From an uncultured Acidimicrobiia bacterium (lineage in GTDB: Bacteria; Actinomycetota; Acidimicrobiia; Spongiisociales; UBA5794), in the NCBI GenBank assembly GCA_963708235.1, contig OY970200.1, positions 1,713,373 through 1,777,372 of the forward strand: a stretch of DNA of 64,000 nt, read 5' to 3'. Below are positions 1 to 27,391 of the stretch, piece after piece. The notes beneath the pieces are model-generated. The model was not told the DNA's origin and did no database searches. It saw only the letters and a list, made by a program, of their open reading frames with translations. Position numbers and translations under genes: made by a program. How positions within the stretch are numbered: position 1 is the first letter of the stretch; every line of letters begins with the position of its first letter.

Positions 1-543
1 GAAGGCGTAGCGGATGCAGCGCTCGATCGCCCTGCGGCTGTTGACCGACTCCTGGACCGCCACCTCCTGCGGGGTGCCCTGGTCGCTACGGCGCCCCTGA
101 CCGACGTACAGACCCTCCGAGTTCTCCCGGACCACCACGAAGTCGACCGCATCGGCGTCGACGTTGCGCAGGGCGCCGTGGACACCGGGGTGGAGCTTGA
201 CCGGGCGGACGTTGACGTACTGGTCGAGCTCGCCGCGGAGCCGGAGCAGGATGCCGCGCTCGAGGACGCCGGGTGGCACCTCGGGGTGTCCGACCGCCCC
301 GAACAGGATGGCGTCGACGGTGCGCAGCCGGGCGAGATCGTCGTCGGTCAGGGTCTCACCGGTCCGCAGGTAGCGGGTGCCGCCGAGCTCGACTTCCTGG
401 AGATCGAAGGTGATCCCGAACCGTCGGGTGACGGCGTCGAGCACCTTGACCGCCTCGGCGACGACCTCGGGACCGGTGCCGTCACCACCGACGACGGCGA
501 CGGTGAGACGGTCCGGTGAACCGACCGCGTTGGATCCCGCCAT
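1..543 (-). CDS. leuB: 3-isopropylmalate dehydrogenase LeuB, N-terminal 180 aa only (C-terminus lies beyond the window start)
   Basis: Manual minus-strand translation from the ATG at 543-541 gives MAGSNAVGSPDRLTVAVVGGDGTGPEVV...LLRLRGELDQYVNVRP...VRENSEGLY, which are LeuB/IDH-family signatures. The start shares one nt with the leuA stop (TGATG). It is absent from the ORF track because it runs off the window edge. Confidence 0.8.
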   Translation of the reverse strand, partial: MAGSNAVGSPDRLTVAVVGGDGTGPEVVAEAVKVLDAVTRRFGITFDLQEVELGGTRYLRTGETLTDDDLARLRTVDAILFGAVGHPEVPPGVLERGILLRLRGELDQYVNVRPVKLHPGVHGALRNVDADAVDFVVVRENSEGLYVGQGRRSDQGTPQEVAVQESVNSRRAIERCIRYAF

Positions 544-2120
544 CAGGCCACCCTCCCGGCGGCGACCGCCTGCTCGATGTGCTCGCTGGCGGCCCGGTTG
601 AGCGCCGCCACGACGGCACGCGCCGAACCCTCCACCACATCGGTCGCCAACCCGGTCCCCTGATAGACCGATCCGGCGACCTGAACCGACACCTCGACCT
701 CGGCCATGGCGTCCGATCCCCCGCCGAGCGGGCGCACGTCGTATCCCAGCAGCTTGGCGTCGGTGCCGAATGCCTCCTTGACCGCCTGGAACGCCGCATC
801 GACCATGCCGTCGCCCTCGGCCTCGAATTCCAGGGTGAGGTCACGGGTCTGCACCTTGACCTTTGCCTGCGGCTGGACCCGGGTGCCGCCGGTGACCGTC
901 AGCGACACCAGACGCATCACCTCGTCGACGGAGATGTGCTCGTCGATGATCGCCCGCAGCTCCCGCTCGGTGATCTCCACCTTGCGGTCCGCCAGCTCCT
1001 TGAATCGGTCGAAGGCCCGCTGGAACGCATCGTCGGTGAGGGTGACGTCGATCTCGTCGAGGGCGTGACGGAAGGCGGCCCGACCCGAGTGTTTGCCCAG
1101 CACCACCTGGCTGCCGGCCTGACCCACGGCGGTGGGGTCCATGATCTCGTAGGTGGTGCGCTCACGCAGCACTCCGTGCTGATGAATTCCGGCTTCGTGG
1201 GCGAAGGCATTCCGTCCCACCACCGCCTTGTTGTACTGGATCGGGTAGTCGGTCAGTTCGGCGACGAGACTGGACGTCCGGTACAGCTCGGCGGTGTTCA
1301 CCCCGACGGTGACGTCGAAGGCGTCGCTGCGGACGGTCAGCGCCATCACCACCTCCTCGACGGCGGTGTTCCCGGCGCGTTCACCGATTCCGTTGATGGC
1401 GCCCTCCACCTGTCGGGCGCCGTTGCTGACGGCGGCCAGTGAGTTGGCGACCGCCAGACCGAGGTCGTTGTGGCAGTGGGCGGAGACGACGACGTCGGGC
1501 CGGTCACCCTTGACCTCGGCGACGATCCGACCGATCAGCGCCCCGAAGTCGGCCGGGGTCGCATAACCGACGGTGTCGGGGATGTTGATCGTGGTGGCGC
1601 CCGCCTCGACGGCGGCCCGGCACACCTCGACCAGGAAGTCGGGATCGGACCTGGTGGCGTCCTCCGGGGAGTACTCGACGTCGGGTGTGTAGCCCTTGGC
1701 GCGGGCGACGTTGCTCCGCACCGCCGCAATCACCTCGTCGGGCGTCATCTGCAGCTTGTGCTCCATGTGGATCGGTGACGTGGCCAGGAAGACATGGATC
1801 CGGGGACGCTCGGCATCGCGGATCGCCTCCCAGGCCCGGTCGACGTCGGGGGCGTGGGCTCGGGCGAGGGCGGCGATCACCGGACCGTGCACCTCACGGG
1901 CGATCCGCTGCACCGCCGCAAAATCCCCCGGCGAGGCGACCGGGAACCCGGCCTCGATGATGTCCACCCCCAGGCGGGCCAGCTGGGTGGCGATGGCGAC
2001 CTTCTGATCTGCGCTGAGGGCGATCCCCGGCGACTGCTCGCCGTCGCGCAGGGTGGTGTCGAAGATGCGGACCTGTTCTGCTTCATTGGGGGTTGTTTCA
2101 TTCAGGGTTGTGTCACTCAT
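543..2120 (-). CDS. leuA: 2-isopropylmalate synthase (bacterial LeuA type with C-terminal regulatory domain)
   Basis: ORF 543..2378 contains IFDTTLRDGEQSPGI...HCHNDLGLAVANSLAAV...GIGERAGN. The start was trimmed to ATG at 2120 (MSDTTLNETTPNE), which is preceded by AGGAGC. The upstream extension is a low-complexity R/G/H-rich artifact. Confidence 0.9.
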   Translation of the reverse strand: MSDTTLNETTPNEAEQVRIFDTTLRDGEQSPGIALSADQKVAIATQLARLGVDIIEAGFPVASPGDFAAVQRIAREVHGPVIAALARAHAPDVDRAWEAIRDAERPRIHVFLATSPIHMEHKLQMTPDEVIAAVRSNVARAKGYTPDVEYSPEDATRSDPDFLVEVCRAAVEAGATTINIPDTVGYATPADFGALIGRIVAEVKGDRPDVVVSAHCHNDLGLAVANSLAAVSNGARQVEGAINGIGERAGNTAVEEVVMALTVRSDAFDVTVGVNTAELYRTSSLVAELTDYPIQYNKAVVGRNAFAHEAGIHQHGVLRERTTYEIMDPTAVGQAGSQVVLGKHSGRAAFRHALDEIDVTLTDDAFQRAFDRFKELADRKVEITERELRAIIDEHISVDEVMRLVSLTVTGGTRVQPQAKVKVQTRDLTLEFEAEGDGMVDAAFQAVKEAFGTDAKLLGYDVRPLGGGSDAMAEVEVSVQVAGSVYQGTGLATDVVEGSARAVVAALNRAASEHIEQAVAAGRVA

Positions 2121-2200: not shown

Positions 2201-3856
2201 TCAGCTGGCGAGGCTGCCCGGCCGCATAAGCGCCAGCCCACCCCCGACACCCGCCGGGGTGGTTGCCTCGCTGCGGAGGAGTCCGATGGTGACCCCGTCG
2301 GTGAGTGCCTCCCATGACGCCTCGATGATGTTCTGATGAACCCCGACCGTGGCCCAGGTGCGTTCGCCGTCCGAGCACTCGATCCGGACCCGCACCCTGG
2401 CGGCGGTGCCGTCGAGGGTGTCGAGGTCCTGGACCCGGTAGTCGGTCAGCCGGATCCGCTCGACCTCGGGGAACGAGGGCACCAGGGCGGCGCGCAGCGC
2501 CCGATCGAGGGCGTTGACCGGGCCGTCCCCACGGCGGGTGGCGGTGACGCGGTCACCGGCGACCATCAGCTCCACCGATGCCTCGGTGCTCACCACGCCA
2601 CCGGATTGGCGCACCGAGACGTTGAACCATTCCACATCGAACAGGTCGGTGGTGGCGCCGGCCACGTTGCGGACCAGCAACTCGAAGGAGCCGTCCGCCA
2701 CCTCGAACTGGTAGCCGAGATGCTCCATCGCCTTGACCCGGTCCACCACCTCTTCGGCGGTGTCGGCGTCGATCCCCCATCCGTGACGCTGGGAGATGGA
2801 GAGCACGGTTGCCCTCCCCATCAGCTCGGAGACCAACATCCGGGTGTCGTTGCCGACCACGGCCGGATCGATGTGCTCATAGGCGTGGTCCAGCCGTGCC
2901 AGACCCGAGGTGTGGAGCCCGGCCTTGTGGGCGAAGGCCGACGAGCCGACATAGGGGTGGCGGGGATTCAGCGGGACGTTCATCGCCTCGGCAACCCGGT
3001 GGGCGACACCGGTCAGCCGGTCGAGATGGGCGGCCGGGCGGATCCGGTGACCCATCTTGAGGGCGAGGTTGGGGATGACGGCGCACAGATCGGCATTCCC
3101 GGGGCGCTCGCCGTAGCCGTTGATGCACCCCTGCACCTGGCGGGCACCGGCGCGCACCGCCGCCAGGCTGTTGGCGACGGCGCAGGCGGCGTCGTCGTGG
3201 AAGTGGACCCCGAGGGCCACCCCCGGGAGCATCGCCCCCACCTCGGCGACCACCCGTTCGGCGACATCGGGCATGGTGCCGCCGTTGGTGTCACACAACA
3301 CCACCCGCTCGGCACCGGCACCGGTCGCCGCCCTCAGTACCTCGACCGAGAACTCCGGGTTGTCCCGGTACCCGTCGAAGAAATGCTCGGCATCGAAGAA
3401 CACCCGGCGTCCGTGACCGACGAGGTAACGAACCGAGTCTTCGACCATCTGCAGACCGGTGGCCAGATCGATGCGGAGCGCCTCGGTGACGTGGTGCGCC
3501 GATGCCTTCCCGACGATGCACACCACCTCGGTGCCGGCGGCGAGCAGCGCCGCCAGTTGCGGGTCGTCGGATGGTCGCACCCGGGCCCGGCAGGTGGAGC
3601 CGAACGCAACCAGCACCGCATGTTCGAGGTCGAGCTCGGTGGTGGCCCGTGCGAAGAACTCGTCGTCCTTGGGGGTCGTCCCCGGCCACCCACCCTCGAT
3701 GTAGTCGACCCCGAGCTCGTCGATGAGTCGCGCCACCACCAGCTTGTCGTCCACGGTGAGGGACATCCCGGCCGCCTGGGTGCCGTCACGCAGCGTGGTG
3801 TCGTAGATCTCGACCTCTGCGTGGGGGGAATTGTGGTGGTTCATGAGCTCCTGCAT
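2201..3856 (-). CDS. cimA: (R)-citramalate synthase CimA (LeuA-type-2 family)
   Basis: ORF 2201..3928 contains EIYDTTLRDGTQAAGMSLTVDDKL...YIEGGWPGTTPKD...HFHDDAACAVANSLAAV, matching the CimA-family GGWPG signature. The start was trimmed to ATG 3856 (MQELMNHH). Confidence 0.8.
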   Translation of the reverse strand: MQELMNHHNSPHAEVEIYDTTLRDGTQAAGMSLTVDDKLVVARLIDELGVDYIEGGWPGTTPKDDEFFARATTELDLEHAVLVAFGSTCRARVRPSDDPQLAALLAAGTEVVCIVGKASAHHVTEALRIDLATGLQMVEDSVRYLVGHGRRVFFDAEHFFDGYRDNPEFSVEVLRAATGAGAERVVLCDTNGGTMPDVAERVVAEVGAMLPGVALGVHFHDDAACAVANSLAAVRAGARQVQGCINGYGERPGNADLCAVIPNLALKMGHRIRPAAHLDRLTGVAHRVAEAMNVPLNPRHPYVGSSAFAHKAGLHTSGLARLDHAYEHIDPAVVGNDTRMLVSELMGRATVLSISQRHGWGIDADTAEEVVDRVKAMEHLGYQFEVADGSFELLVRNVAGATTDLFDVEWFNVSVRQSGGVVSTEASVELMVAGDRVTATRRGDGPVNALDRALRAALVPSFPEVERIRLTDYRVQDLDTLDGTAARVRVRIECSDGERTWATVGVHQNIIEASWEALTDGVTIGLLRSEATTPAGVGGGLALMRPGSLAS

Positions 3857-3883
3857 TTCGGTGGTGCGGGGAGATACGGGGTA

Positions 3884-3912
3884 CAAAAAAACCCCCGCCG
3901 GTGAGGGCGGAG
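3884..3912 (-). terminator. intrinsic terminator/attenuator hairpin (CCTCCGCC-loop-GGCGGGGG) followed by T7, about 28 nt upstream of the cimA start
   Basis: On the minus strand the sequence is ccuccgcccucaccggcggggguuuuuuug, a GC-rich 7-bp stem with a U7 tract. It sits inside a 5' leader with no upstream gene on that strand, which is the attenuator configuration. Confidence 0.6.
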
Positions 3913-3918
3913 GTTGGA

Positions 3919-3951
3919 AGGCGCACACGGCTATTGGCGACGTGTGCGCCT
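3919..3951 (-). promoter_or_regulatory. 11-bp perfect stem-loop (AGGCGCACACG-N11-CGTGTGCGCCT) in the cimA leader, overlapping the leader-peptide stop
   Basis: The inverted repeat is seen directly in the sequence. It lies between the putative leader peptide and the terminator hairpin. Confidence 0.55.
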
Positions 3952-3991
3952 AGGTGAGAATGAGTCCGTTGCGGAGGTGAAGTGCGGTCAT
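3950..3991 (-). CDS. putative 13-aa leader peptide MTALHLRNGLILT (5 of 13 residues are Leu/Ile) in the cimA 5' leader
   Basis: Manual translation of atgaccgcacttcacctccgcaacggactcattctcacctag on the minus strand. The stop codon abuts an 11-bp perfect inverted repeat. There is no clear SD upstream, so the peptide call is tentative. Confidence 0.4.
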   Translation of the reverse strand: MTALHLRNGLILT

Positions 3992-4144
3992 GAGAAATCG
4001 AAGTGTGACGGTTCCCGCCGGGGATGTCAAGGGGGTAATCCCAGATGCGGTGTTCCTGCCTTGCCGATGACTCACCCGGACGCGTCCGCCCTCCGGTTGG
4101 CTCGGCGTGGGCGGGCCCCCGGAGCGGCCTACCATTCCCATGTC

Positions 4145-5188
4145 ATGCCGCACATTCTTCTTGCCGAACCGAGGGGCTTCTGCGCCGGGGTCGAGATGGC
4201 CATCAAGGCGCTCACCTGGATGGTGAGGATCTTCGAGCCGCCGGTGTACTGCTATCACGAGATCGTCCACAACGCGGCGGTCGTCGAGGCCTTCGAGCGC
4301 GCCGGGGTGATCTTCGTCGATGACATCACCGAGGTGCCGTTCGGGAGCCCCGTGATGCTGTCGGCCCATGGTTCCGCACCCGAGGTGGTCGCCGGTGCCT
4401 CCGACCGGGCCGCGGTCATGGTCGATGCGGTGTGCCCGCTGGTCACCAAGGTCCATCACGAGGTCAAGCGGATGGCGGAGAAAGGCTTCGACATAATCTA
4501 CGTCGGGCACCACGGCCACGACGAGGCCATCGGCGCCGTCGCCGAGGCTCCGGATTCGGTCACCCTGGTCGACCCCCGCGACGGTCTGGGTGGTTTCGCC
4601 GCCGCCGAACCGGGCAAGGTGGCGCTGCTCGCCCAGACGACGCTGGGTCTCTACGAATGGGAGGGTGTCCTCGACGACGCCACGGCCGCCTACCCGGATC
4701 TGTGGACGGCCCGGCGCAGCGACCTGTGTTACGCCACCACCAACCGTCAGGCAGCGGTCCAGCATCTCGCCGAACGGGCCACCCTGATCCTGGTGGTCGG
4801 GTCGGAGAACTCGTCGAACACCCAGGCGCTGGTGCGGGTCGCCCGCAACGCCGGGGTCGAGGCCCATCGTGTCGACGGTGCCGAGGCGATCGATCCGGGA
4901 TGGCTCGAGGGCCACGAGGTGATCGGAGTCACCGCCGGAGCGTCCGCACCCGACCAGCGGGTCCAGGCGATCATCGATGTGGTGGTCGGTGGCGGCGAGG
5001 TGGAACGGGTGCGCGTGATCGAGGAAGACGAGTACTTCCCGCTGCCGCCGGCGATGCGTCGGCTCGCCGCAGCCCTGCAAGGGTTGGTCGAAGGGGCGTA
5101 TGCCTGTCGTACCCCGGGTCGGCCCGGTCTGATCGAAGGCGACCGGGAGTGGGGCGCCACCGAAGCCCTGGAACTTCTCGACGTCTGA
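4145..5188 (+). CDS. ispH: 4-hydroxy-3-methylbut-2-enyl diphosphate reductase IspH (LytB)
   Basis: ORF 3914..5188 contains ILLAEPRGFCAGVEMAIKAL...HGSAPEV...CPLVTKVHHEV...NSSNT. The start is assigned to ATG 4145 (MPHILL). An alternative upstream ATG at 4067 is possible. Confidence 0.85.
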   Translation: MPHILLAEPRGFCAGVEMAIKALTWMVRIFEPPVYCYHEIVHNAAVVEAFERAGVIFVDDITEVPFGSPVMLSAHGSAPEVVAGASDRAAVMVDAVCPLVTKVHHEVKRMAEKGFDIIYVGHHGHDEAIGAVAEAPDSVTLVDPRDGLGGFAAAEPGKVALLAQTTLGLYEWEGVLDDATAAYPDLWTARRSDLCYATTNRQAAVQHLAERATLILVVGSENSSNTQALVRVARNAGVEAHRVDGAEAIDPGWLEGHEVIGVTAGASAPDQRVQAIIDVVVGGGEVERVRVIEEDEYFPLPPAMRRLAAALQGLVEGAYACRTPGRPGLIEGDREWGATEALELLDV

Positions 5189-5375: not shown

Positions 5376-6038
5376 TCACTGAGCGGCCGAGAGGCGTTCG
5401 AGGATGGCGGCGATCACCTGGTCGGCGGTGAGGGGTCCGGTATCGATGCAATAGGCATCGTCTGCGGGTCGTAGCGGAGAATCGGCCCGGTTGGCATCGA
5501 TGGTGTCACGGCGGCGCAGGTCGGCGGCCACGTCGTCGACATGACGGTCGGCAGCTTCGGCGTCACCGGAGCGGCGGGCGGCCCGGATCTCGGGGGCGGC
5601 ATCCAGATAGATCTTGACCGGCGCATCGGGGAACACCACGGTGCCGATGTCCCGCCCCTCGACCACCGCCGATCCCCCGTGCGCCATCACCCACAACCGC
5701 TGGGCGTTCACCAGGTGGCGGCGGATGGCGGGGATGGCGGCGACCCGACTCACCGCCGCCGTCACCGCCTCGTTGCGGATCTCGAGGGCGACCGCCTCGT
5801 CATCGAGCCACACGGCACCCATCTCGTAGCCGATGCGACATCCGGTGGCGGCGGCGATCACCTCGTCGTCGAGGTCGGGGTCGTCGAGATCGGCGTCGCT
5901 ACGCAACACCGCCAGCGTGGCTGCCCGGTACCAGGCTCCGGTGTCGAGATGGGGCAGCGCCAGCCGACCCGCCACCCCCCGGCTCACCGTGCTCTTGCCG
6001 ACCCCGCTCGGTCCGTCCACTGCGATGACCCCGATCAT
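5376..6038 (-). CDS. cmk: cytidylate kinase
   Basis: This is the C-terminal part of ORF 5376..7511: MIGVIAVDGPSGVGKSTVSRGVAGRLALPHLDTGAWYRA (P-loop, Cmk family). Its ATG overlaps the aroA TGA stop (ATGA) at 6035-6038. Confidence 0.85.
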   Translation of the reverse strand: MIGVIAVDGPSGVGKSTVSRGVAGRLALPHLDTGAWYRAATLAVLRSDADLDDPDLDDEVIAAATGCRIGYEMGAVWLDDEAVALEIRNEAVTAAVSRVAAIPAIRRHLVNAQRLWVMAHGGSAVVEGRDIGTVVFPDAPVKIYLDAAPEIRAARRSGDAEAADRHVDDVAADLRRRDTIDANRADSPLRPADDAYCIDTGPLTADQVIAAILERLSAAQ

Positions 6039-7331
6039 GTCGCCGACCACAGCGCATCGATCTGATCGAAGAACCCGGGCCATGACACACCGACGACCTC
6101 GGGATCGTCGATGGTCACCGCACCTGAGACCCCGGCGGCGGCAACGGTGGCCGCCATGGCGATGCGATGATCGCCGTGGGTGGCCACCACCCCGGGGTCG
6201 AGAAACCCGGTCCCCACCACCGCAAATCCGTTCGGGGGTCGCTTCCGCTCCACCACCGAGGGAACGGATCATCTCCACGGTCGAAGCGATGCGGTCGCTC
6301 TCCTTGGCTCGGAGTTCGGCGGCGTCGGTGACGGTGGTGATCCCCTCGGCGAGCGCACCGACCACGGCGACCAGCGGGAGTTCGTCGAGGGCGCTGACCG
6401 CCAGATCCCCGCCGACCTCGGTGGCGCTCAACGCGCCACCACGCACGGTGACGGTCCCCACCGGGTCGCCGAGCAACATCCCGGTGACCTCGGCACGGAT
6501 CTCGGCGCCGAACCGTTCGAGAATCTCCAGAAAGCCGATCCTCCCCGGGTTCAATGAAACACCGGGCGTGGTGATCTCGGCTCCGGGTCGGACCGCCGCC
6601 AACGCCCACAGGTAGGCCGCCGACGACGGGTCGCCGGGTACGAGGTAACGGTGGGTGGGGATCGCTCCGGGCCAGATGCGGAACGCCGTCGCCGACACCC
6701 GCTCCCCCAACCCCCAGGTCTCGAACCATCGCTCGGTGTGATCTCGGTATCCGGGGGGACTGTCGACGAGCGATTCCCCCTCGGCCTGGATTGCCGCCAG
6801 CTCGAACGCCGAACGCACCTGGGCAGAGGCGACGGGGACCACGACGGCGGCGCCGGTGAGCGGATTGGGCGCTCCGACCGAGACCGGAGCGGTGCCGTCC
6901 GGGCGGCTGACCTGAACGCTGGCGCCGAGTGCGCTCAACGGGTCGACCAGGCGACGCATCGGACGGCGACGCAGCGAGGCGTCCCCGGTGAGCACGGTGG
7001 TGAAGGGGCGGGCCGCAAGTGCCCCGGCGAGCAGCCGCAGCGTGGTCCCCGAGTTGCCGCAGTCGATGGTGTCCCCACCGGAACCGGGAACCGGGGGGTG
7101 CCAGGCGGCCACACCGGGTGAGTGCACGGTGCCGTCCGCCTCGATGGTCACACCGAGCCGGCGCAGCGCATCGACCGTGGATGAGATATCGGCGCCGGGG
7201 CCGGCGCCGAGCACCTGGGATGTCCCGGTGGCCATACCCGAGAACAGATAGGCGCGGTGGGACAGCGACTTGTCGCCGGGGGGCGAGCAGACGGCGGTGA
7301 ACGGTGTGGACGGAAGCGAGACAGTGCGCAT
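6035..7331 (-). pseudogene. aroA: 3-phosphoshikimate 1-carboxyvinyltransferase (EPSP synthase) AroA, with an apparent +1 frameshift in a G5 run at 6234-6238
   Basis: The N-terminal 365 aa lie in the frame of ORF 5376..7511 (GDKSLSHRAYLF...KESDRIASTVEMIRSLGGGAEATP). The C-terminus lies in ORF 6035..6256 (NGFAVVGTG...THGDHRIAMA...WPGFFDQ). Removing one G/C from the run restores a contiguous protein of about 431 aa. Start ATG 7331 (MRTVSLP). Confidence 0.8.
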
Positions 7332-7341
7332 CGGTGCGTTC

Positions 7342-8088
7342 CTACGGGGTGTCGGCGGGGGCGGCATCTTGCCACGACCCCGCAGCGGCGTACAGACGGC
7401 GCACCTCATCGAGGCTGAGCAGTCGACTGTCGCCGGGTCGGAGGGTGACATCACGCAGTGGGCCGATGGCGGTGCGGGTGAGCGTGACCACGGGGTGGCC
7501 GATGGCGTCACACATCCGTCGCACCACCCGGTTGCGGCCCTCCTCCATCACCACCTCCGCAAGGGTGCGTCCCGGACGGCGGTCGAGGATCCGCGCCGAC
7601 ACCGCCACGGCAGGACCGTCCTCGAGGTCGACTCCGGACTCCAGGCGACGGATCGTTGCGTCCTTCATGTTGCCCTCCACCAGGACGATGTAGGTCTTGG
7701 TGACGCCGAAGCTCGGATGGGTGAGCCGGTGGGTGAGATCCCCGTCGTTGGTCAGGATGAGCAGACCTTCGCTGTCGGCATCGAGACGACCCACGGGATA
7801 GATTCGCACCTCGGCATCGATGAGATCTACGACGGTGTGGGTGGCGTGGGGGTCATCGGTGGTCGAGATCACCCCCACCGGTTTGTACAGCAGGTGGTAG
7901 ACGAGGTCGGGGCGCACCGGGAGCGGGATCCCGTCGATCTCGACCTGGGCGGTCTCGGTCTCGATCCGCTCCCCGATCTGGGCCTTCCGTCCATCGACGG
8001 TGACCCGACCGGCGGCGATCAGCACCTCGGAATGTCGGCGCGAGGCGTACCCCGAGTGGGCGATCACCTTGTGGATGCGTTCGATCAC
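7342..8088 (-). CDS. rluB: 23S rRNA pseudouridine synthase RluB (RsuA family)
   Basis: This is the C-terminal 248 aa of ORF 7342..8811: ERIHKVIAHSGYASRRHSEVLIAAGRVTVDG...RLDADSEGLLILTNDGDL (S4 domain plus PSU catalytic Asp motif). A GTG start at 8088 overlaps the scpB TGA stop (GTGA). Confidence 0.8.
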   Translation of the reverse strand: MIERIHKVIAHSGYASRRHSEVLIAAGRVTVDGRKAQIGERIETETAQVEIDGIPLPVRPDLVYHLLYKPVGVISTTDDPHATHTVVDLIDAEVRIYPVGRLDADSEGLLILTNDGDLTHRLTHPSFGVTKTYIVLVEGNMKDATIRRLESGVDLEDGPAVAVSARILDRRPGRTLAEVVMEEGRNRVVRRMCDAIGHPVVTLTRTAIGPLRDVTLRPGDSRLLSLDEVRRLYAAAGSWQDAAPADTP

Positions 8089-24137: not shown

Positions 24138-26681
24138 TCACGTGCCGCCCTCGGCGGCCACCACCCCGCGGTCGACCCGGTCGATCGCCTGCGCCGCCGC
24201 ACTGCGCAACGACGGGTACACATCCCGCATCTGCCGCAGCAGATCGAGGGTTTGGCGGGCGATCCGGACGAAGTCGCCGGCCGAGGCCTCGTCGTCGAAG
24301 AGGTCGTCGAGGGCGGCGCCCGATGCCCAGTCGTGCATTCGCTGGACATAGCCGTCGTTGGGTGGGCGACCCATCACGATGCGTCGGTGGTTCTCGGCGG
24401 CCGCCAGGTCATCGCTGAGGGCGAAGATGGTGTCCACTGCCCGGGCGACGGCCTCGGTGGGGAGCCCGCCGGGGATGTCGTCGCGGCGGGGTTCGTAGAC
24501 GAACATGGTGAGCAACCCGGCCAGTTCGGGAGGGCTCAAGCCGTCGGCGAGACCCCGCTCGGCGCTCTCGGCGATGAGGATGTCCAGTTCGTTGTAGATG
24601 AACCGGAGCCGCTCCCCCTTTGCCGTCAGCCGCCACCCGTCGACGTAACCCCACTCGCCGAGGAGTCGCAGCAGGGAACGGAACCCGGCGACGAGGTCAC
24701 CGGAACGCACCCCGATTCGTCGTTCCAACCGGGCGATGTCGCGTTCCGCCTTGGCAGCCCGGTCGAGCCACATCAGGTGCGTCCCCAGGTCCGGGCACGA
24801 GGCCACCGGATCGGTGGCGACGGTGTCGGAGACGGCATCCGACGAGATGGTCATCGCCCGGACGGCACGGGCGACGGCCCGCTGGTACGACTTCTCACGG
24901 GGACGGTAGGGGTCGGGGAGGTCGACGGTCCCGACCAGGATGGTGGCCGGCGACAGGTCGTCGGCACCGAGACGCCGGGTCCCCTCCTCGCCGACCAGGA
25001 CGAGTCGGGGATTGGCGCCGTAGCCGCGGGCCACCATCGCCCATCGCTGCGGCCCGTCGGCCCCCGGCATCTCCATCACATCGCCGGGGACCAGTCGCTG
25101 GGCGAAATCCTGCATACGGCGGCGCGAGTCGGCGACGTGGTCACCTGCGGCGTAGACCTCGATGTCCCCGAGATCGCACCGAGCGTTCTTGCGGAACTCG
25201 GCAACCTCACCCCGCCGCACCTCGATGCGGGCCTCCAACTCGGTGCGCTGGGCTTCGAGGCGGTGCTGGGCGAAGGAGGCGTGGAGCAGCTGCTCGGCCT
25301 GACTCTGCGGATATTTGGCGACCAGGTTGACCGCCATGTTGTACGAAGGGGAGAAGCTCGATGTCAGGGGGTGGCTGCCCCGCCCGGCCACACCGGCGAC
25401 CCGATCGAAGGGGATGTCGCGCTGGTGGAGGACCACGGCGGTGCCGGAGGTGTCGATGCCGCGCCGGCCCGCCCTACCGGTGAGCTGGGTGTAGTCACCC
25501 GGCTGGAGGATCTGATGGGTCTCGCCGTCGAACTTGCTGAGCCGTTCCAGCACCACGGTGCGAGCGGGCATGTTGATACCCAACGAGAGGGTCTCCGTGG
25601 CGAACACCAGCCGGATCAGACCGGCCGAGAACAACACCTCGACGGTCTCCTTGAAAGCGGGAACCAGACCCGCATGATGGGCGGCGACCCCCGCTTCGAG
25701 AGCCACCATCCACCGTCCGAATCCGAGCACGGCGAGGTCGTCGGGTGAGAGATGGGCGGTCCGCTCGGCAGCGATCCGGGCGATCTCGGAGCGTTCGGCC
25801 GTCGAGGTCAGTTCGAGACCGGCAGCCGCCACGAGGTCTGCCGCCTGGTCGCACCCGGCACGCGAGAAGATGAAGTAGATGGCCGGGAGCAGGCTGAGCC
25901 GCTGCAGGTGTTCGGCGACCTCGACCCGGCGCGGCGCCGCAAACCGGCGATAGCGGCCCTTGCCCTTGCGCAGCATGGTGACCACGGCGGGGTTGGGTCG
26001 GGTGCCGGCACGGTCGAAGATCGGCAGCATCTCGGTGCGACCTTCACGATGCAGATCCTTCACCAGATACACACTCTCCAACGGAACCGGGCGATGGGTC
26101 TCCTGGACCAGGGCGGTGTCGCCACGCCGGGAGCTGACCCAGGCGGTGAACTCCTCGGCGTTGGCGATGGTGGCGGAGAGATTCACCAGTTGGATCTGAC
26201 GGGGAAGATGGATGATCACCTCCTCCCAGACCGACCCGCGGTACGGGTCCTGGAGGTAGTGGACCTCGTCGAGGATCACCACGCCGAGATCGGCCAGGAT
26301 GGCCGCATCGGCATAGATCATGTTGCGTAACACCTCGGTGGTCATCACCACGATGGGTGCGTCACCGTTGACCACGTTGTCGCCGGTGAGCAGCCCCACC
26401 GAATCGTCGCCGTGCTGGCGGCGCAGATCACTGAACTTCTGATTGGAGAGCGCCTTGATCGGGGTGGTGTAGAAGGCGCGCCGCCCCCGTTGCAACGCCA
26501 ACTCGATGGCGGCTTCGGCAATGACCGTCTTGCCGGCCCCGGTGGGTGCGGTGACCACCACCGACGCACCGCGCTCGAGGTGGCCGATCGCTTCGAGCTG
26601 GAAGCGGTCCGCCTTGAACGGCAGACGCTCGACAAACCCTTCGAGGGAACCGCCCGGGACACCCGGTGTCGAGATGGTCAT
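24138..26681 (-). CDS. helY: Ski2-like DEAD/DEAH-box RNA helicase (HelY)
   Basis: It has a Walker A (APTGAGKT), a DEVH box, the helicase C motifs and a long Ski2/DSHCT-like C-terminus. It lies immediately downstream of tatC, as in mycobacteria. Confidence 0.8.
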   Translation of the reverse strand: MTISTPGVPGGSLEGFVERLPFKADRFQLEAIGHLERGASVVVTAPTGAGKTVIAEAAIELALQRGRRAFYTTPIKALSNQKFSDLRRQHGDDSVGLLTGDNVVNGDAPIVVMTTEVLRNMIYADAAILADLGVVILDEVHYLQDPYRGSVWEEVIIHLPRQIQLVNLSATIANAEEFTAWVSSRRGDTALVQETHRPVPLESVYLVKDLHREGRTEMLPIFDRAGTRPNPAVVTMLRKGKGRYRRFAAPRRVEVAEHLQRLSLLPAIYFIFSRAGCDQAADLVAAAGLELTSTAERSEIARIAAERTAHLSPDDLAVLGFGRWMVALEAGVAAHHAGLVPAFKETVEVLFSAGLIRLVFATETLSLGINMPARTVVLERLSKFDGETHQILQPGDYTQLTGRAGRRGIDTSGTAVVLHQRDIPFDRVAGVAGRGSHPLTSSFSPSYNMAVNLVAKYPQSQAEQLLHASFAQHRLEAQRTELEARIEVRRGEVAEFRKNARCDLGDIEVYAAGDHVADSRRRMQDFAQRLVPGDVMEMPGADGPQRWAMVARGYGANPRLVLVGEEGTRRLGADDLSPATILVGTVDLPDPYRPREKSYQRAVARAVRAMTISSDAVSDTVATDPVASCPDLGTHLMWLDRAAKAERDIARLERRIGVRSGDLVAGFRSLLRLLGEWGYVDGWRLTAKGERLRFIYNELDILIAESAERGLADGLSPPELAGLLTMFVYEPRRDDIPGGLPTEAVARAVDTIFALSDDLAAAENHRRIVMGRPPNDGYVQRMHDWASGAALDDLFDDEASAGDFVRIARQTLDLLRQMRDVYPSLRSAAAQAIDRVDRGVVAAEGGT

Positions 26682-27391
26682 CGTTTCAGGATGAAGCGGA
26701 TGGCGAGGATGGTGATCTCGTAGAGCAGGTACATCGGGCCGGTGAGGATCAGCAGCGTCAGCGGATCACCCCCGGGGGTGAGGAAGGCCGCCGAGATGAT
26801 GATGATGGTGGCGGCATACGGTCGCCACCCCCGCAGCTTGGCCGCGGTGAGCATCCCGGTGGCGGCAGCCGCAAACAGAAACACCGGGAACAGGAACGCC
26901 ACCCCGAACGCAAACAGGAAACGCATCGCAAACCGCAGGTAGTGATCGGCGCCGATGGTGGGGTCGAGCAGACCGTCCCCGAACCCGAGCAGCAGCCGCA
27001 GCGTCATCGGCAGCGCAAAATATCCGCCGACGATCCCGCCGAAGAAGAGCACCGACATCACCGCCGACAGCGGGATGACGTAGCGGCGTTCCTGTGGCGT
27101 GAGGGCCGGGCTGACAAACCTCCACAACTGGTAGATCAGCACCGGGGTCGCCAGGATCAGCCCGCCGAACATCCCGATCCGCAGCACCAGCGAGAAGGCC
27201 TCCGTCGGCTGGAAGAACGCCAGACGCTCCCCGTCGACCGCATCGAGGTACGGCTTCGAGATGAACTCGAGGATGAAGCGGTACCCGAACAGGGCGACGA
27301 TGGTGCCGATGCCGACGGCCAATGCGGACTTCACCAGACGGGACCGGAGCTCCACCAGGTGGTCCATGAAGGACATGGGTTGCTGGGTCAC
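26678..27391 (-). CDS. tatC: twin-arginine translocase subunit TatC
   Basis: It has six predicted TM helices and the MSFMDHLVELRSRL N-terminal TatC signature. Confidence 0.9.
   Translation of the reverse strand: MTQQPMSFMDHLVELRSRLVKSALAVGIGTIVALFGYRFILEFISKPYLDAVDGERLAFFQPTEAFSLVLRIGMFGGLILATPVLIYQLWRFVSPALTPQERRYVIPLSAVMSVLFFGGIVGGYFALPMTLRLLLGFGDGLLDPTIGADHYLRFAMRFLFAFGVAFLFPVFLFAAAATGMLTAAKLRGWRPYAATIIIISAAFLTPGGDPLTLLILTGPMYLLYEITILAIRFILKR

Follow-up and report, generated by a model that had tools for sequence, protein, structure and literature searches.

The cimA-leuA-leuB locus and its leader

The DNA analyzed here, a window of 64,000 nucleotides (nt) from contig OY970200.1 of an uncultured Acidimicrobiia bacterium, carries near its left end a short leader element upstream of the genes cimA, leuA, and leuB, and we consider this element, with a probability of roughly 0.8, to be a leucine (Leu)- and isoleucine (Ile)-responsive, ribosome-mediated transcription attenuator of cimA-leuA-leuB. 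The initial annotation of the window had proposed such an attenuator, and the proposal now finds support in about 100 relatives, in covariation within both helices of the leader, and in codons that vary with the genes of the operon. All coordinates are window positions, and features lie on the minus strand unless stated otherwise.

The putative first regulated gene is cimA, encoding (R)-citramalate synthase (2201..3844; TIGR00977, 590.6 bits, cutoff 450), whose start ATG at 3844 has a GGAG motif 3 nt upstream; another in-frame ATG is found at 3856. It is followed by leuA, encoding 2-isopropylmalate synthase (543..2120; NF002086, 710 bits, cutoff 532; TIGR00973, 659.6 bits, cutoff 598.7), and by leuB for 3-isopropylmalate dehydrogenase, truncated at the window edge to 181 amino acids (1..543; NF002898, E = 2e-66). 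Since the start of leuB overlaps the stop of leuA (ATGA), and scans of the 80-nt gap between cimA and leuA revealed no terminator, promoter-like site, or unusual structure, the three genes look like one operon. On the far side of the leader, ispH is transcribed divergently, starting near 4146 on the plus strand (TIGR00216, 266 bits, cutoff 187.85), and the only upstream signal on the operon strand is the attenuator-like leader.

As read directly from the sequence, the leader open reading frame (ORF) occupies 3950..3991, with its ATG at 3991..3989, 13 sense codons (MTALHLRNGLILT), and a UAG stop at 3952..3950. Five of the 13 codons specify Leu or Ile (L4, L6, L10, I11, and L12), as the initial annotation had noted, and the last three form the putative regulatory triad CUC AUU CUC (Leu-Ile-Leu, 3956..3964), at positions -4 to -2 from the stop, with a single codon (ACC) between triad and UAG. 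The 11-base pair (bp) perfect hairpin that had been described as starting at this stop is likewise present. This hairpin, H1 (3919..3951, -21 kcal/mol), has 11 perfect pairs and an 11-nt loop (5' arm 3951..3941, loop 3940..3930, 3' arm 3929..3919), and its first pair lies inside the stop codon, where it is formed by the A of UAG, the second stop nucleotide. A 3-nt spacer (3916..3918) separates H1 from a predicted intrinsic terminator, T (3883..3915), which consists of a GC-rich 10-bp stem (3915..3890, -17.6 kcal/mol; 5' arm 3915..3906, loop 3905..3900, 3' arm 3899..3890) and a U-rich tail to 3883 (UUUUUGU).

Some details of the earlier description had to be adjusted. The GC stem and the U-run that it gave for the terminator stand, but not the seven-residue length of the latter, since two of these U residues pair in the stem. 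Its distance of about 28 nt between terminator and cimA holds for the in-frame ATG at 3856 and not for the cimA start at 3844, which lies 40 nt downstream of T. Finally, what it had called a 290-bp leader is actually the entire cimA-ispH intergenic region, whereas the transcribed leader would measure about 150 nt, from a predicted start near 3995 to the ATG at 3844.

Both structures stand out from shuffled sequence. A terminator scan returned two overlapping calls of the T site, compared with 0.3 +/- 0.5 calls in shuffles, and the 166-nt leader folds into exactly H1 and T at -54.5 kcal/mol, whereas shuffles average -37.8 +/- 3.8 kcal/mol (z = -4.44) and none of 200 folds as stably. A putative promoter precedes the ORF, with a -35 box TTGACA, also read directly (4025..4030), located 17 nt before a -10 box CACACT (4002..4007) that ends 10 nt before the leader ATG. 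The generic sigma-70 scan that we used demands an A at position 2 and four of six matches to TATAAT, which is why the CACACT box is not listed by it; the same scan of the window found no promoter-like site between T and cimA. The leader ORF and cimA share one frame (window 3842..3991), with a single UAG between them, and ORF 2201..3928 continues this frame. We judged the shared frame to be probably a matter of chance, since high GC content keeps frames mostly open across T in the relatives.

The leader family and its regulatory codons

Relatives of the leader were sought at 160 loci with CimA relatives (48-63% identical), nearly all from Acidimicrobiia metagenome-assembled genomes (MAGs), to which six more were added through protein look-ups, giving 166 loci. 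A covariance model, R1, was built from the leaders of only three other genomes (L017, L021, and L029), which are of equal length. This model matches the window at 3881..3965 over its full length (44.8 bits, E = 4.9e-10), and it located full-length copies at about 100 of the 166 loci. Reading of the upstream regions had shown a recurring module. The order of its parts is a TTGACN-17-CATACT promoter, a start codon, an ORF of 10-14 amino acids with the regulatory codons at -4 to -2, a stop, a hairpin, and a terminator. A second, weak match of the model in the window (26758..26809, 20 bits, E = 0.013) is spurious, being an ATC repeat (an Ile run) within the coding ORF 26678..27391 that lacks H1.

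An alignment of the leaders by MAFFT misaligned H1, and it was dropped and replaced by one based on R1. In the latter, which is fitted to the model, 97.4% of the cells are standard pairs, and 19 of the 20 pairs have changed on both sides, with compensatory changes in all ten modelled pairs of H1 and in nine of the ten pairs of T. Shuffles never reached the family level of pairing (0/500), and slid controls were 41-52% paired. Compensatory variants are also visible in the raw sequences, for example GGCGCACACG/CGUGUGCGCC, GGGCGUCCACC/GGUGGACGCCU, and GGGCAUAGGG/CCCUGUGCCC, and G-U pairs occur in relatives, indicating that H1 is a structure at the RNA level on the minus strand. The comparison with related genomes that the initial annotation had suggested thus yields both conserved peptide codons and compensatory stem changes, and no orthologous leader keeps the hairpins while losing the peptide or its codons: every orthologue has branched-chain codons at the same three positions.

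The geometry of the module is narrowly constrained. Peptides of 10-14 amino acids are found in 99 of 101 leaders, exactly one codon separates the last Ile, Leu, or valine (Val) codon from the stop in 88/101, the first H1 pair lies 0-2 nt into the stop codon in 87/101, and the spacer between H1 and T measures 0-4 nt in 93/101. H1 itself ranges from 18 to 36 nt, with a mean of -19 kcal/mol, and the mean for T is -16.7 kcal/mol. UAG is the stop codon in 83 of the 101 leaders, and its A or G makes the first pair of H1; this preference may reflect the hairpin alone, or a preference for release factor 1 (RF1). The window fits in each respect (10 nt from -10 box to ATG, a peptide of 13 amino acids, one codon after the triad, H1 starting at stop nucleotide 2, and a 3-nt spacer), and on these grounds its leader is placed in a family of branched-chain amino acid leaders conserved in Acidimicrobiia. 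In cimA-type leaders, the first long ORF downstream begins a median of 14 nt after the model match, which itself runs 8 nt beyond the T stem. Because the relatives leave no room for a promoter between T and the downstream ORF, and the flanking genes diverge, cimA must, as far as gene arrangement tells, be transcribed through T.

The promoter explains another feature of the leader. TTGACN precedes the -10 box by 17 nt in 28 of 29 parsed leaders (by 18 nt in the remaining one) and also in most of the 101, two relatives (L031 and L115) share the CACACT box of the window, and throughout the family 6-12 nt lie between the -10 box and the start codon. Transcription typically starts 7 nt after the -10 hexamer. 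Taken together with the conserved distance to the AUG, this points to a 5' untranslated region of only 0-4 nt, so that the leader mRNA is predicted to be leaderless, or nearly so, with its start near 3995 in the window. The missing Shine-Dalgarno (SD) sequence, which had been noted before, would thereby be accounted for. In Corynebacterium glutamicum, the ilvBNC leader peptide is reported to start 1 nt from the transcription start (PMC11857589).

The family extends beyond the reach of R1, since AT-rich leaders that the model missed were found by eye and by script at three loci (L064, L074, and L075) from Candidatus Actinomarina and an unclassified Actinomycetota MAG. These encode peptides such as MKKIIIII and MKIIGIIIM, and have an AU-rich H1 and a U8 tail. 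In Rfam, a cmscan of 3600..4400 at E <= 10 returned no leader family, the best hit being anti-hemB at 21 bits, with a gathering score of 49.5, and a scan of the whole window at gathering thresholds returned tRNA only and no cis-regulatory family, such as Leu_leader, Thr_leader, His_leader, Trp_leader, or T-box. Full-text searching, with most subscription journals outside its reach, found no paper on a leader peptide or attenuator in connection with cimA or Acidimicrobiia, and the family is apparently undescribed so far.

The strongest argument for ribosome sensing comes from the identity of the codons, which we counted over unique peptides and compared between operon types. Where cimA stands alone (59 unique peptides), Ile occupies positions -4, -3, and -2 in 54, 56, and 56 peptides, respectively, and Leu is never found there; Val occurs within the last five residues in 6/59. 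Leaders of leuB-ilvE-cimA operons (34 peptides, genes confirmed) end in VIIIx, VIVIx, IIVIS, and the like, and Val is present in 29/34 of them compared with 6/59 for cimA alone (Fisher p = 3e-13, a value that, like the other Fisher p-value given here, overstates independence since the loci are related by descent). Leaders of ilvE-cimA operons (L120, L122, and L145) end in FVIII. Those of ilvB-ilvN-ilvC-leuA-leuB(-leuCD) operons (L163 to L166) end in VLLIE, VLLIT, VLLIT, and IILVLP, so that Val, Leu, and Ile are present in 4/4, and position -4 is Leu in all four; the comparison for Leu is 4/4 against 1/59 for cimA alone (p = 8e-6). The sites of these ilvB-type leaders are L163:2232-2293, L164:3557-3636, L165:3556-3636 (= L002:6490-6570), and L166:3473-3555, with peptides such as MTTNHTTVLLIT. 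At L164 and L165, the ilvB leader lies across a divergent ilvD from a cimA that bears its own Ile-only leader.

The window is the sole cimA-leuA-leuB locus among the 166, and it has the sole cimA leader with Leu in the triad; Val is absent. LeuB also serves the citramalate route to Ile, and IlvE and IlvBNC serve Val synthesis, which leaves LeuA as the only Leu-specific enzyme. The Leu and Ile codons without Val would therefore match the pathway, LeuA alone among the added enzymes being specific for Leu. With Leu at -4 and -2, the leader departs from the Ile at -4, -3, and -2 by which the cimA-only subtype is recognized, and judged by its codons it is a distinct subtype accompanying a distinct operon. 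Genome and metagenome scans for nearer cimA-leuA-leuB relatives reached a CimA identity of 63% at most. The nearest relatives from a protein search (CimA 68% and 67% identical) have leaders ending in VIIIS and PIIC, and their cimA is followed by gltB or by argJ-argB-argR; in the latter case (L162:873-5614, CimA 67%), where cimA likewise has an Ile leader, a divergent second argR-like gene lies upstream, which makes for an unusual grouping of Ile and arginine genes. In close relatives of LeuA, leuA-leuB is located behind ilvBNC. The simplest history would be that leuA-leuB moved behind cimA in the lineage of the window, and that two AUC codons became CUC. CUC is one base away from AUC, and since only one of the seven non-synonymous single-base neighbours of AUC codes for Leu, two independent changes to Leu seem unlikely under drift. 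Codon identity that tracks the genes of the operon argues strongly, as a sequence pattern, for ribosome-mediated attenuation.

Threonine (Thr) codons are also found before the Ile run in cimA-only leaders, at -6 in 30/59 and at -5 in 15/59 unique peptides, and codon 2 of the window leader is a Thr codon (ACC, 3988..3986). Since Thr is a precursor in the alternative (IlvA) route to 2-oxobutyrate, it is conceivable that Thr could be a second sensed amino acid; compositional bias could equally explain these codons.

The proposed switch and its alternatives

The initial annotation had called the order of peptide, hairpin, and terminator classic, and had been unable to derive a convincing antiterminator by eye. 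In a classical three-hairpin attenuator, a stalled ribosome would free the 3' arm of H1, or another upstream segment, to pair with the 5' arm of T. The order of the parts looks classical indeed, and CACCUCCGC, in codons 5-7 of the window ORF, matches the T 5' arm and could pair with the T 3' arm at -15.6 kcal/mol. As an antiterminator, this candidate was rejected because the pairing is neither above shuffles nor conserved, and the segment would lie beneath a ribosome stalled at codons 10-12. Duplexes of either terminator arm with all upstream RNA in 101 leaders were equal to dinucleotide shuffles (mean z = 0.04 and 0.38), and the best partner sites were scattered across the family, the window having a z of about -1.

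The effect of the ribosome was examined in two ways. Equilibrium folding with ribosome masks gave a probability of about 0.95 for T in every ribosome state, but this test was set aside as insensitive since the E. coli trpL control behaved in the same way. In a co-transcriptional version, the RNA was truncated before the T 3' arm and folded with the ribosome footprint masked. Here, the 5' arm of the trpL control was paired at 0.30 when free, 0.62 with the ribosome stalled on the tryptophan codons, and 0.06 with the ribosome at the stop. In the window, pairing of the T 5' arm was 0.00-0.20 in the stalled states versus 0.03 at the stop, thus showing no stall-dependent pairing, and the family means were 0.23-0.38 stalled versus 0.38 at the stop, with no shift in the required direction. 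A consensus fold of 73 aligned leaders kept the T 5' arm unpaired in every state and contained no alternative structure. These computations agree with the earlier inspection by eye, in the window and across the family, and the fold search found no pairing that is mutually exclusive with the terminator 5' arm, leaving the three-hairpin mechanism implied by the word classic unsupported. A competitor of about 3 nt or fewer would escape these tests, and for C. glutamicum ilvBNC an overlap of 3 nt with the base of the terminator is reportedly enough for switching (PMC11857589). Beyond a competitor of that size, the antiterminator is missing family-wide, and the absence is real. As neither the window nor the family has one, the switch must, if there is one, differ from the classical three-hairpin type, which we regard as improbable here.

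A steric mechanism could account for these findings. In this model, transcription would start a few nt before the AUG, and the 13-codon ORF would be translated as a leaderless mRNA. With ample charged Leu- and Ile-tRNA, the ribosome would reach the stop and transcription would end at T, whereas scarcity of either tRNA would stall the ribosome on the triad and allow the polymerase to continue into cimA-leuA-leuB. Free RNA would always form T, so that termination would be the default. A stalled ribosome would leave H1 folded against the mRNA entrance, with the ends of the hairpin side by side, so that only about 3 nt and the width of one helix would separate the ribosome from the base of T. Closure of the final T pairs at the exit channel of the polymerase, for which ribosome and polymerase would need nearly the same space, would then be blocked, and read-through would follow. 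A ribosome that moves past the triad would unwind H1 on its way to the stop, turning loop, 3' arm, and spacer into a free linker of 17-29 nt, or would be released, and T could close. In masked folding, H1 stays intact while the first or second triad codon occupies the A site, opens partly with the third, and is lost once the stop is there.

That the leader ORF is translated, that T terminates, and in which direction the system responds are, throughout this model, inferred from sequence. Translation has indirect support from the conserved frame, from the fixed distance of 6-12 nt between -10 box and start codon, and from the match between codons and operon. The model would explain the absent antiterminator, the two tight spacers, the free length and sequence of H1, and the ease with which the triad is re-coded. 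Yet we advance such a switch, with no antiterminator and with H1 as a foldable tether between stop and terminator, only tentatively, and doubt rather than expect that it represents a distinct attenuation mechanism. If true, it would amount to a three-codon sensor that is independent of the RNA switch and could be retuned by single-base changes (AUC to CUC or GUC) as the content of the operon shifts, which fits the pattern over the cimA, leuB-ilvE-cimA, ilvBNC-leuAB, and cimA-leuA-leuB operons.

Several points weigh against a Leu/Ile-responsive attenuator in the window. The combination of a Leu-Ile-Leu leader with cimA-leuA-leuB is a single case, the nearest relatives have Ile-only leaders and other downstream genes, and drift in a leader undergoing decay could have produced the two Leu codons. 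A triad of one Ile and two Leu codons is weaker than the codon runs of classical leaders, and the shared descent of the loci limits what the codon statistics can add. No antiterminator was detected and T is predicted to fold in all ribosome states at equilibrium, and therefore regulation would rest on a hypothetical switch mechanism. The steric model itself is at the edge of the distance range known from E. coli, where termination is about 90% with a stop codon 28 bp from the terminator and less than 10% at 5 bp (PMC4824070). It gains no added support from the spacing statistics, which are neutral since the two spacers do not compensate for each other in the family (rho = -0.04).

The same conserved geometry, and the finding that masked folding loses H1 only once the ribosome has passed the triad, would also be expected if H1 itself were the element that lowers termination, for example by holding the exit channel of the polymerase or NusA, with no ribosome required close by. 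Only a ribosome at the stop would then melt H1 and let T act; the outcome would equal that of the steric model, except that an untranslated leader would read through. To judge from the sequence, H1 would be placed as a hairpin-stabilized pause element, with the polymerase 10-12 nt downstream, inside the T 5' arm. However, the sequence, length, and loop of H1 vary freely, which argues against a specific contact with the polymerase, and we know of no precedent for a plain adjacent hairpin that suppresses a terminator, making this explanation an unlikely one.

Alternatively, T could be a constitutive partial terminator, and a stalled ribosome could shield the read-through mRNA from 5'-end-dependent decay, thereby raising CimA, LeuA, and LeuB. 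Induced mRNA stabilization by a ribosome stalled in the leader is known for ermC in B. subtilis, the ORF lies at the extreme 5' end of the transcript, and codon tracking would be explained without an antiterminator. Mere protection leaves unexplained why H1 exists, and why it is placed at the stop and 0-4 nt from T in about 90% of the 101 leaders, and we consider it very improbable.

Least credible of all is the view that the element does not regulate cimA, being instead a separate small gene or small RNA that ends at its own terminator, or a decaying leader with drifted Leu codons. Its triad is unique among 59 unique cimA-type leaders and T lies 40 nt from cimA compared with a family median of 14 nt (measured in the family from 8 nt beyond the T stem), but no promoter-like site lies between T and cimA and the relatives have no room for one. 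The ORF, H1, T, spacers, and promoter are all intact in the window. The operon is alone in having leuA added behind cimA, and it is here that both codons have changed to Leu, a residue found at the same position in 4/4 ilvB-leuA leaders.

Two further candidate mechanisms were rejected. Frameshifting under starvation, or stop codon read-through across T, left no signal, because GC content leaves every one of the three frames open across T in 78-94% of the leaders, and slippage at AUC repeats was dismissed since these are not a slippery site. Elsewhere in the window, a 711-amino acid ORF (5376..7511) has, by eye, an N-terminal part resembling EPSP synthase and a C-terminal part resembling cytidylate kinase, with an arginine-rich joint that looks out of frame; it probably represents two genes, or else an ORF that runs on in GC-rich DNA.

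Implications and comparison with known systems

In dozens of genomes, cimA is preceded by an Ile-only leader, which provides independent support for the annotation of these genes as part of the Ile pathway, and not as leuA paralogues, and which would serve as a regulatory signature for the citramalate route to isoleucine. One RNA scaffold that carries Ile, Val/Ile, Val/Leu/Ile, or Leu/Ile codons depending on the downstream genes is an unusually clean natural experiment, in strong comparative support of ribosome sensing, and a sensor cassette separable from its switch would suit synthetic amino acid-responsive control. To our knowledge, the Acidimicrobiia have few cultured representatives and no established genetic system. 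The architecture departs from the textbook, and an element of 110 nt offers a direct test of the long-noted puzzle that actinobacterial attenuators seem to lack parts (PMC1262725).

The enterobacterial attenuators (trpL, leuL, ilvL/ivbL, thrL, and hisL) resemble the family in having a short ORF with codons for the end product and a terminator before the first structural gene. As in ilvL, multivalent codons (Leu, Val, and Ile) fit the function of the operon, and a starvation-induced stall would be expected to give read-through. Enterobacterial leaders differ in having an SD sequence and longer codon runs, located in segment 1 of the 1:2, 2:3, and 3:4 hairpins, whereas the Acidimicrobiia family has a putatively leaderless ORF with three regulatory codons shortly before a hairpin. 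The enterobacterial type also has a 2:3 antiterminator, whereas H1 and T do not overlap and none is detectable.

Closer in phylogeny are the actinobacterial ilvB candidates of Seliverstov et al. from 2005, short ORFs with runs of Ile, Val, and Leu codons by a terminator, in which, according to those authors, components of the attenuator are missing (PMC1262725). They share with our family the lack of a clear antiterminator, but their ORFs overlap the terminator hairpin, whereas the Acidimicrobiia leaders have a separate, covarying hairpin between the stop and T. That paper does not mention cimA or citramalate, and does not cover Acidimicrobiia. The Corynebacterium ilvBNC leader, or ilvB-II motif, is like the window leader in coming from Actinomycetota, in its SD-less leader peptide with Ile, Leu, and Val, in its two conserved hairpins, P1 and P2, and in preceding branched-chain genes (PMC10272879, PMC11857589). 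In ilvB-II, P2 is the terminator, most of P1 lies within the upstream ORF (uORF), and the loop of P1 pairs with the 3' shoulder of the terminator to form an antiterminator (PMC10272879); for C. glutamicum ilvBNC, mutations have been used to test a proposed antiterminator overlapping the base of the terminator (PMC10272879, PMC11857589). In the window, by contrast, the uORF stops at the first H1 pair, H1 loops vary and have no complementarity to T, and the gene downstream is cimA, in Acidimicrobiia.

That a ribosome close by can directly repress an intrinsic terminator is known from the pyrBI attenuator. The steric switch that we propose would resemble the situation described by Li et al. in Nucleic Acids Research (NAR), where a ribosome within a few nt of the terminator stem prevents closure of the last pairs (PMC4824070). 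In those systems, it is where the ribosome stands along the RNA that sets the distance, whereas in the Acidimicrobiia leaders a foldable hairpin would alter the effective distance between ribosome and terminator.

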